From the sequence record PX880103.1: DNA of 64,000 nucleotides. The stretch is one strand, 5' to 3'. The notes beneath the pieces were generated by a model. It made no database searches, had not been told where the DNA came from, and was given only the letters and a program-made list of their open reading frames with translations. This document shows, in pieces, positions 28,338-35,389 of this stretch (position 1 is the first letter of the stretch; every line of letters begins with the position of its first letter). The position numbers and the translations under genes are program-made. This DNA is from a phage.

Positions 28338-28526
28338 TTAGTCCTTAGTTAAATTTTCTAAATATGTTTCTAAATCATTTTCAGCTTTATCGATAGATTT
28401 TACTAATTCGTAATATGTTTCGGCATCTCCATAATCAGAAGATAATTCAAAAGACAAATCCTTTTCTAAACTAACAATTTCACCAACTAAAAATAATATT
28501 TCGTTCTTTTGTTCGCGAGTAATCAT
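28338..28526 (-). CDS. hypothetical protein (tk.1-like)
   Basis: 62 aa acidic ORF. Confidence 0.35.
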   Translation of the reverse strand: MITREQKNEILFLVGEIVSLEKDLSFELSSDYGDAETYYELVKSIDKAENDLETYLENLTKD

Positions 28527-28714
28527 AAGGAATTTATATAATTAATAAGTTCTTGTTCTTTATTATCGAATTCTTTAGAAAGTTCTTCGTATTCATTTAC
28601 GTTAAAAGGACCGCATTCATTACAAACTCTTTCTAATTCACTATTTTTATCCATAACTTCGTGGATAAGAGAAAAGAGTTTGTCTTTTTGTTCTTTACTT
28701 AAACTCATAACCAT
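28523..28714 (-). CDS. hypothetical protein (tk.2-like)
   Basis: 63 aa acidic ORF. Confidence 0.35.
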   Translation of the reverse strand: MVMSLSKEQKDKLFSLIHEVMDKNSELERVCNECGPFNVNEYEELSKEFDNKEQELINYINSL

Positions 28715-28932
28715 GTCACCTTTAAGCAGTATTCTTCTACATGCTGTTTACGACCTTTCTTATCAATAAAGGTATATTCAACGAATGTTCCAATGTAGTC
28801 TTTATCTACATCATGTGGACTATTAATTGGACATTTAGTACGGCAAATGCGTTCCCATTGACGAATAATTACTGCCTTATTCTTTGGGTCATATGGATGT
28901 GGATAATGTATATTCATAATAACGGTTCCCAA
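28705..28932 (-). CDS. hypothetical protein (tk.3-like)
   Basis: 75 aa ORF. Confidence 0.35.
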   Translation of the reverse strand: MGTVIMNIHYPHPYDPKNKAVIIRQWERICRTKCPINSPHDVDKDYIGTFVEYTFIDKKGRKQHVEEYCLKVTWL

Positions 28933-29381
28933 TCAACAATCACAATTTCTAATTTAGAGGAATACGTATCTAAAATATCTTCAATAATATCCCAGTTCCC
29001 TTTACCTATGCCTGCACCAATCCTAGGCATATAGATTGTAGGTTTAATCAGTTTATTTTCACCAAACTCATTTAATTCTAACATACAATTCATTAAAGCG
29101 GAATACTCAAAATTTGGCCCTGGTTGAAATTGAGTATAAAGGTTGAAGCAATACGCTTTATGAGTCCTAAAGTATTTTTCATAGACTGAGTAAGAACCGA
29201 GTTTAGTTACATCACCCCATTCAGTCTGTAATTTATCAGCTTCCAAAATTTTAGGGAAAGCTTTGGTTAATTGACCCGCTACGCCTGAACCCATAGTATG
29301 AAAACAATTGCATCCATGCGCAATATTTTTACCTTCAGCGAAAAGGGCGACAATATCGCCCTTGATATATTTTACAATCAT
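28914..29381 (-). CDS. macro-domain protein (ADP-ribose binding/processing)
   Basis: 155 aa; GDIVALFAEGKNIAHGCNCFHTMGSGVAGQL and PRIGAGIGKGNW fit macro-domain N-terminal and C-terminal glycine-rich signatures. Confidence 0.55.
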   Translation of the reverse strand: MIVKYIKGDIVALFAEGKNIAHGCNCFHTMGSGVAGQLTKAFPKILEADKLQTEWGDVTKLGSYSVYEKYFRTHKAYCFNLYTQFQPGPNFEYSALMNCMLELNEFGENKLIKPTIYMPRIGAGIGKGNWDIIEDILDTYSSKLEIVIVDWEPLL

Positions 29382-29725
29382 CTAGTACTCAATCCTCGAT
29401 TATAAGAATCTACCAAACGGTCAACCATTGAATGACAAGCGGCTTTATCTTTCTCCTCCGCAACTGAACATTCTAAAGTATTCCACTTTTTAGCATATCG
29501 TTTTAACAATGTATAGTTTTTGTATCTGCTTGATTTATCCCTTTCTCCGTCTTTATATGCATATATTAATTTCTGTGCAAATTCAGCTTGGCATGCTTTA
29601 TTTTTCCCACAATAATCTGCCGCAGTGCGGTTTACATATTCTCTAATTTCAGTATATGATGTATCTGCTGACGCAGAAGCAGAAAATGAAATTAATCCTA
29701 TACATAAAACCAAAATTTTAGTCAT
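29378..29725 (-). CDS. vs: Vs valyl-tRNA synthetase modifier-like secreted protein
   Basis: 115 aa with N-terminal signal peptide, at the T4 vs position next to regB. Confidence 0.6.
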   Translation of the reverse strand: MTKILVLCIGLISFSASASADTSYTEIREYVNRTAADYCGKNKACQAEFAQKLIYAYKDGERDKSSRYKNYTLLKRYAKKWNTLECSVAEEKDKAACHSMVDRLVDSYNRGLSTR

Positions 29726-30263
29726 TTACTATTTCCAAAAGTTTATTATTTTTAAGGTAATTAGCCTTTTCTAGGACTTCAGAAGCATATTTAGAACCTG
29801 CTTTAACATTCCATCCCGAATTATAAGAGGATATTGCTTTTCTTATATCGCCCTTATGTATATTTAACCAATAAGAAAGTTCAATGTACGCCCAGGAAGC
29901 TGAATTGGATCGTTTATTCAACATTCTTTTTATTTCAGCATCGGTCATATTATAACCAAGTTCCTTAACTCTTGCTCGCATAGTAGGCAAATAATTTTGG
30001 AACATTCCGTAGGCGTGATGCTTTGGTTTAGATTTTAAATTAACTCCGCCAGAGCTTTCTTGCCATAAAATGGCTGCCATTATATGACCTAATCCGCTCT
30101 TGTGGATATTTTTATGTGTTTTATATTTTCCATCCTTAGAAAATTGTTCCCCGAATTGATACGCGTAACGCATGTTATCGAGTTGGACATTACTGAAAGT
30201 ATGCTCGGAGCTATGTGCCATCATTGAAATGGCCAATAGACCAGCGAGTAGTGCTTTTCTCAT
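29718..30263 (-). CDS. lytic transglycosylase-like secreted protein (vs.1-like)
   Basis: 181 aa, signal peptide, SLT-like motifs WQESSGG, YGMFQN, SYNSG. Confidence 0.5.
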   Translation of the reverse strand: MRKALLAGLLAISMMAHSSEHTFSNVQLDNMRYAYQFGEQFSKDGKYKTHKNIHKSGLGHIMAAILWQESSGGVNLKSKPKHHAYGMFQNYLPTMRARVKELGYNMTDAEIKRMLNKRSNSASWAYIELSYWLNIHKGDIRKAISSYNSGWNVKAGSKYASEVLEKANYLKNNKLLEIVND

Positions 30264-30754: not shown

Positions 30755-30789
30755 GAAAAATTATACCACAGTCAAGAGGAAAAGTAAAC
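30755..30789 (-). promoter_or_regulatory. T4-type early promoter candidate upstream of regB
   Basis: Minus strand GTTTAC ... TGGTATAAT. Confidence 0.45.

Positions 30790-34401: not shown

Positions 34402-35370
<969 letters not shown>

Positions 35371-35389
<19 letters not shown>

Follow-up and report, generated by a model that had tools for sequence, protein, structure and literature searches.

The tk.4 (adfM) gene of a T4-type phage: a stand-alone ALC1/TARG1-like macrodomain and likely DNA ADP-ribosyl glycohydrolase

Phage T4 lacking both adfA and adfN is still DarTG2-resistant, from which a further factor was predicted, and T4 AdfN depends on other phage factors for its function (PMC11825919). 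In a HIDEN-SEQ study posted as a bioRxiv preprint in November 2025, a T4 transposon library was screened on DarTG2-expressing E. coli; tk.4 was the sole significant hit, and T4 from which tk.4 had been cleanly removed became sensitive to DarTG2, whereas the gene was dispensable on plain K-12 and important only with DarTG2 (10.1101/2025.11.20.689424). The authors renamed the gene adfM (anti-DarT factor Macrodomain), remarked on the structural likeness of its product to Mycobacterium tuberculosis DarG and wrote of the enzymatic removal of ADP-ribose from DNA by T4 AdfM only that it "seems likely" (10.1101/2025.11.20.689424). Macro domains have been reported in 41% of myoviruses (PMC9503650).

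The biochemistry of such proteins has been described for several macrodomains. SCO6735 (PDB 5E3B) and BT1257 (PDB 2FG1/2AFC) are ALC1-like hydrolases of thymidine-linked ADP-ribose on DNA that carry an active-site glutamine (Gln-type). SCO6735 efficiently removes ADP-ribose from DNA when the linkage is to thymidine but not when it is to guanosine, and it also rescues E. coli from DarT. Its activity is lost in the Q85A variant, almost lost in N27S and lowered in G128E, and the proposed mechanism is water-initiated, with the glutamine positioning the distal ribose (PMC9411070). The hallmark of the SCO6735/BT1257 subclass is a mobile loop five residues longer than that of DarG and TARG1, and in SCO6735 this loop carries Lys89, which is important for activity on DNA (PMC9411070). 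DarG (M. tuberculosis, PDB 5M3I; Thermus aquaticus, PDB 5M31/5M3E) has a C-terminal DarT-binding domain and is linked to its toxin, and its catalytic lysine, K80, lies in a "TK" motif (PMC8120803). Further, gp104 of phage PhiKZ, also called AdfM, strips DarT2-made ADP-ribose from DNA in vitro, and its residue N23 is required for full activity (Cell Rep 2026, PMC13309987).

Identity of the open reading frame

We analyzed a 64,000-nucleotide stretch of phage DNA (PX880103.1; the whole stretch is referred to as the window). An earlier sequence-only reading of the window had described a 155-amino acid macro-domain ORF between tk and vs. The ORF is real, and the motifs GDIV, IAHGCNC, GSGVAGQL and PRIGAGIGKG are all present in its translation. 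The ORF and its boundaries are as follows.

28914..29381, minus strand: tk.4 (adfM) coding sequence, ATG to TGA, 155 amino acids plus the TGA stop; a single macrodomain
29378..29381, minus strand: ATGA overlap of the vs stop and the tk.4 start, seen in the sequence; translational coupling
28914..28917, minus strand: ATGA overlap of the tk.4 stop and the tk.3 start, seen in the sequence with the tk.3 start taken as annotated in T4 and RB14 (annotated tk.3 length of 213 nt in both)

The encoded protein is 100% identical to Tk.4 of phage RB14 and identical at 154/155 positions to Tk.4 of T4, the sole change being an aspartate at residue 135 here (as in RB14) for a glycine in T4; this residue lies in a helix and is not conserved. 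The flanking 2.6 kb are 98.4-98.9% identical to RB14, T2 and T4, in which the ORF is annotated as tk.4, and the gene order vs-tk.4-tk.3, upstream of tk, found in these three records is also that of the window. Sequence (154/155), synteny and the ATGA overlaps, which T4 and RB14 also have, thus agree on orthology to T4 tk.4, and, on these grounds, we identify the ORF as tk.4 of a Tequatrovirus. The presence of ATGA overlaps on both sides of tk.4 indicates tight coupling inside the minus-strand block that runs from regB to tk. Existing GenBank labels for tk.4 are "macro domain protein," "Poa1p-like" or "phosphatase."

T4 AdfM is therefore the same gene as the window ORF and, like it, is flanked by vs and tk.3, the phenotype having been measured in T4. 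The anti-DarTG2 role of tk.4 is already known; it was shown by knockout in T4 and not in the window phage. The sequence-only reading had proposed counter-defense against DarT-like toxins, and this agrees with the T4 transposon screen and with the phenotype of the tk.4 deletion; the experiment it had suggested, infection of DarTG-carrying hosts with a knockout, has been published for T4, which became sensitized to DarTG2 (10.1101/2025.11.20.689424).

Macro fold and active-site pattern of Tk.4

The assignment of a macro fold was borne out by profile search. Pfam Macro (PF01661) matches Tk.4 with 28.4 bits over profile positions 2-117 of 118, above the gathering cut-off of 22 bits, and PHROG 335, labeled "phosphatase," matches with an E value of 6.8e-66. 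An AlphaFold2 model of Tk.4 built with 65 homologues has a mean pLDDT of 95 and a pTM of 0.90, and the protein has the α/β macro fold, both of its glycine-rich ADP-ribose-binding loops being conserved. Its nearest structural and sequence neighbors are TARG1, DarG, Poa1p, SCO6735 and BT1257 and not macrodomains of the MacroD, viral or PARG types. We conclude that Tk.4 is a stand-alone macrodomain of the ALC1/TARG1-like class. Conservation was scored over 201 sequences (120 database proteins, 80 bacterial loci and the query), and three segments of the protein are considered below.

29277..29318, minus strand: first ADP-ribose-binding loop, residues 22-35, HGCNCFHTMGSGVA; placed by sequence and by alignment to SCO6735, DarG and PhiKZ gp104
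29130..29144, minus strand: NLYTQ, residues 80-84; placed by HMMER profile alignment (TARG1, BT1257) and MAFFT alignments
28998..29027, minus strand: second glycine-rich (phosphate-binding) loop, residues 119-128, PRIGAGIGKG; placed by sequence and alignment

The first loop, HGCNCFHTMGSGVA, holds a G-x-G motif and N25, the counterpart of SCO6735 N27 and PhiKZ AdfM N23, and is conserved at H22 (196 of the 201 sequences), G23 (200), C24 (192), N25 (200), C26 (200), G33 (201) and A35 (201). In the second loop, P119, G122 and G124 are each found in 200 of the 201 sequences and I121 in 198, and G122 and G124 align with SCO6735 G126 and G128. The glycine-rich loops named in the earlier reading are thus kept in the homologues (G33 in 201/201, G122 and G124 in 200/201).

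The NLYTQ segment is where Tk.4 departs from the lysine-dependent members of its class. Q84 aligns with the catalytic lysine of TARG1 (K84) and DarG (K80; the T-K motif of the T. aquaticus protein corresponds to T83-Q84 in Tk.4) and with Gln-85 of SCO6735 and the glutamine of BT1257. Within the set of 201, N80 is present in 200 sequences and Y82 and Q84 in all, and none has a lysine at position 84. Further, Tk.4 has the same Gln/Asn/Gly pattern as SCO6735 and BT1257: N25, Q84 and G124 align with SCO6735 N27, Q85 and G128 and are conserved in 200/201, 201/201 and 200/201 sequences, respectively. We conclude from these alignments that Tk.4 is to be placed in the Gln-type (SCO6735-like) branch and not in the Lys-type DarG branch. 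Because the equivalents of the SCO6735 residues are near-invariant, a Tk.4 without the lysine would have a precedent-backed route for reversing DarT2 damage.

The missing catalytic lysine could also be read differently, namely that Tk.4 binds DarT2 or covers ADP-ribosylated DNA and so blocks the toxin or masks the lesion without catalysis. In line with this, catalytically dead SCO6735 Q85A, DarG K80A and TARG1 K84A still inhibit DarT in vitro, SCO6735 most strongly (PMC9411070). However, the C-terminal domain through which DarG binds DarT is missing from Tk.4, which is 155 amino acids long, and the residues used for hydrolysis by SCO6735 are all invariant or nearly so in the Tk.4 family, which would argue for retained catalysis. 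We regard such a mainly non-catalytic role as unlikely.

Although Tk.4 shares its catalytic pattern with SCO6735 and BT1257, it differs from them in three respects. First, the longer mobile loop of these proteins is absent from the Tk.4 family, whose loop is about 6 residues shorter: BT1257, when aligned to the profile of the Tk.4 family, carries six additional residues after Q84, and the Lys89 region of SCO6735 is missing from Tk.4. Second, Tk.4 has HGCNC in place of HVCND. Third, it has Asp49 in place of a tyrosine. We note that Asp49 (window positions 29235..29237, minus strand) is present in 200 of the 201 Tk.4 family sequences, and that a tyrosine is aligned with it in SCO6735, BT1257, DarG, PhiKZ gp104 and Poa1p.

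Membership of Tk.4 in DarG was considered and rejected. The NCBIfam DarG equivalog model (NF048014; PADLOC DarG) scores Tk.4 with 31.4 bits over model positions 2-147 of 338, its N-terminal macro part, against a cut-off of 250 bits, and Tk.4 has no second domain, no catalytic lysine and, in the bacterial loci checked, no linkage to a toxin. PhiKZ gp104, like Tk.4, is a stand-alone phage macrodomain that counters DarTG2, and its N23 corresponds to Tk.4 N25; the two proteins are nevertheless only ~20% identical (pairwise E value of 0.057), and close homology behind the common AdfM name was rejected on these values. By contrast, gp104 matches M. tuberculosis DarG with an E value of 9.4e-25 and keeps the lysine of the PTK motif, making it a genuine DarG-type protein. 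Judged by these comparisons, T4 AdfM and PhiKZ AdfM are assigned to different sub-lineages within the ALC1-like class, and "AdfM" of T4 and PhiKZ should not be handled as a single homologous family.

The labels "phosphatase" and "Poa1p-like" raise the possibility that Tk.4 is mainly a small-molecule enzyme, either an ADP-ribose-1''-phosphate phosphatase or an O-acetyl-ADP-ribose deacetylase, with the DarTG2 phenotype being secondary. These transferred database labels and the common H-x-C-N-C motif are the only points in its favor: in yeast Poa1p (PDB 6LFQ-6LFU), a eukaryotic ADP-ribose-1''-phosphate phosphatase, the motif reads HSCNC and resembles the HGCNC of Tk.4. However, in the same comparison, the alignment for which covered the N-terminal half of Poa1p, position 84 is a serine in Poa1p, whereas Tk.4 has an invariant glutamine there, as does the DNA hydrolase SCO6735. 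The sole experimental phenotype, obtained in T4, is DarTG2-specific. Further, to our knowledge, ADP-ribose-1''-phosphate is not generated by tRNA repair in T4 (Pnk/Rnl1), which also counts against a Poa1p-type activity, and we consider such an activity to be quite improbable as the main function of Tk.4.

Proposed activity and distribution

Taken as a whole, the ORF is best explained as tk.4 (adfM), an early-region, T4-type, stand-alone ALC1/TARG1-like macrodomain that is most likely a DNA ADP-ribosyl glycohydrolase, and we hold this explanation with good confidence. What the present analysis contributes to it are the identity of the ORF, the fold, the class and the active-site pattern with its conservation. 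The host toxin DarT2 puts ADP-ribose on thymidines in single-stranded DNA and blocks replication. In the proposed sequence of events, this ADP-ribose would be held between the two glycine-rich loops of Tk.4, and Tk.4 would hydrolyze the bond between thymine and ribose, giving free ADP-ribose and phage DNA that can be replicated again. The chemistry, with no catalytic lysine involved, would probably be SCO6735-like rather than DarG-like: Q84, held by N25, would position the distal ribose, and a water molecule held by the backbone would start the reaction. By analogy with SCO6735, we infer that Tk.4 hydrolyzes thymidine-linked ADP-ribose on DNA through such a Gln/water mechanism. Points against this explanation are the absence of the DarG/TARG1 lysine and of the longer mobile loop and the HxCNC motif common to Poa1p; given the family-specific Asp49, the range of substrates may also differ.

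The sequence-only reading had also offered a regulatory role, which we took to be the reversal or tuning by Tk.4 of the ADP-ribosylation or RNAylation carried out by the phage's own Alt, ModA and ModB. The sole point for this is that T4-type genomes carry both ADP-ribosyltransferases and a macrodomain. However, Alt, ModA and ModB modify arginine, and we know of no cleavage of arginine-linked ADP-ribose by macrodomains of the TARG1 class, for which this linkage is the wrong chemistry. The substrates of SCO6735 and TARG1 are instead Glu/Asp-linked ADP-ribose on proteins and thymidine-linked ADP-ribose on DNA (PMC9411070). In addition, T4 tk.4 can be dispensed with on plain K-12 and matters only when DarTG2 is present, and the Alt and Mod genes are not known to lie close to tk.4. 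This part of the earlier reading finds no support here, and we consider action on the phage's own modifications to be highly improbable.

Relatives of Tk.4 were found by tblastn in 2,843 of 50,697 phage records, the carriers including T4-like, rV5-like, Felix-O1-like and Kuttervirus-like phages as well as phages of Pseudomonas, Acinetobacter and Vibrio. Among the GTDB representative genomes, at least 526 stretches encode a relative, and in the best 80 of these bacterial loci it mostly stands alone, as an ORF of 140-180 amino acids. Clustering of the 1,121 neighboring ORFs from the best 80 loci revealed no conserved neighbor beyond lineage-level synteny, the largest cluster covering 8 of the 80 loci. 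Ten DarT-sized neighbors that are tightly coupled to the bacterial homologues were spot-checked against Pfam; none matched DarT, and the neighbors had unrelated domains or no domains. With neither a recurring neighbor nor DarT, the Tk.4 family is therefore not obviously an orphan antitoxin from a DarTG operon; rather, it looks like a widespread stand-alone predicted hydrolase that is carried by phages. That the family is widespread in bacteria, with homologues not linked to DarT, also counts against the non-catalytic role considered above, and, for the preferred hydrolase, implies that a broader activity may serve, among other purposes, to counter DarT2.

It is possible, and we put this forward tentatively, that Tk.4-type macrodomains form a catalytic subclass of their own among the ALC1-like proteins, defined by Gln84, the short mobile loop, HGCNC and Asp49, with native substrates that could go beyond the thymidine adducts made by DarT2, e.g. 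other ADP-ribose lesions on nucleic acids. If so, the AdfM proteins of T4 and PhiKZ would represent independent recruitments with different chemistry. The tk.4 case confirms that a working anti-defense gene can be recognized from sequence alone; the practical value is small because both the macrodomain annotation (GenBank) and the anti-DarTG2 role in T4 are already available. The gain is mechanistic: with placement in the Gln-type branch, the targets for mutagenesis or inhibitors become Q84, N25 and possibly D49 instead of a lysine.

Regulatory signals and neighboring genes

A consensus scan of the region gave one promoter match that is relevant to the operon containing tk.4.

30760..30788, minus strand: σ70-like promoter match upstream of regB (TTTACT-17-TATAAT, plus an upstream TG)

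This match is only a lead, to a candidate start of a regB-vs.1-vs-tk.4-tk.3 transcription unit. Promoter-like sites in the region were not enriched (19 found and 18.3 expected from shuffles), and neither were terminator-like sites (4 found and 2.6 ± 1.5 expected from shuffles); the idea that tk.4 has a promoter or terminator of its own was rejected because the site counts do not rise above those of shuffles. Antisense within the 5' end of tk.4 (29343..29363, plus strand), a hairpin with a perfect stem of 8 bp, AAGGGCGACAATATCGCCCTT, precedes a T-rich run; it is terminator-like, but is probably a chance match.

Several of the neighboring genes deserve mention. Directly upstream of tk.4 and coupled to it is vs (29378..29725, minus strand), the valyl-tRNA synthetase modifier, which has no Pfam match; in minimal medium, vs was depleted more strongly than any other T4 gene (10.1101/2025.11.20.689424). 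Just upstream of vs, the 181-amino acid product of vs.1 (29718..30263, minus strand), hypothetical in most records, contains a lytic-transglycosylase domain of the SLT type (25.1 bits; cut-off of 21.3) and has a signal-peptide-like N terminus. Downstream of tk.4, tk.3 (28705..28917, minus strand) encodes 70 amino acids with a full-length match to DUF7202 (131 bits). The interval from tk to tk.4 (28338..28932) has the T4 arrangement tk.1-tk.2-tk.3, without RB32ORF110c and RB32ORF111c. RB14 and T2 carry these two small additional ORFs between tk.2 and tk.3, and the window Tk.4 is nonetheless 100% of the RB14 type. We conclude, from this comparison of gene content and protein identity, that the tk-tk.4 stretch shows local mosaicism among the T-even phages.

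Further away, a 151-amino acid NUDIX hydrolase (34934..35389, minus strand; Pfam, 51.5 bits) is encoded at the position of T4 nudE/e.1. NUDIX hydrolases of the nudE kind hydrolyze free ADP-ribose, the product that a macro hydrolase would release, and a functional link between this gene and tk.4 is a matter of speculation. The NUDIX gene adjoins that of lysozyme e (34402..34896, minus strand).
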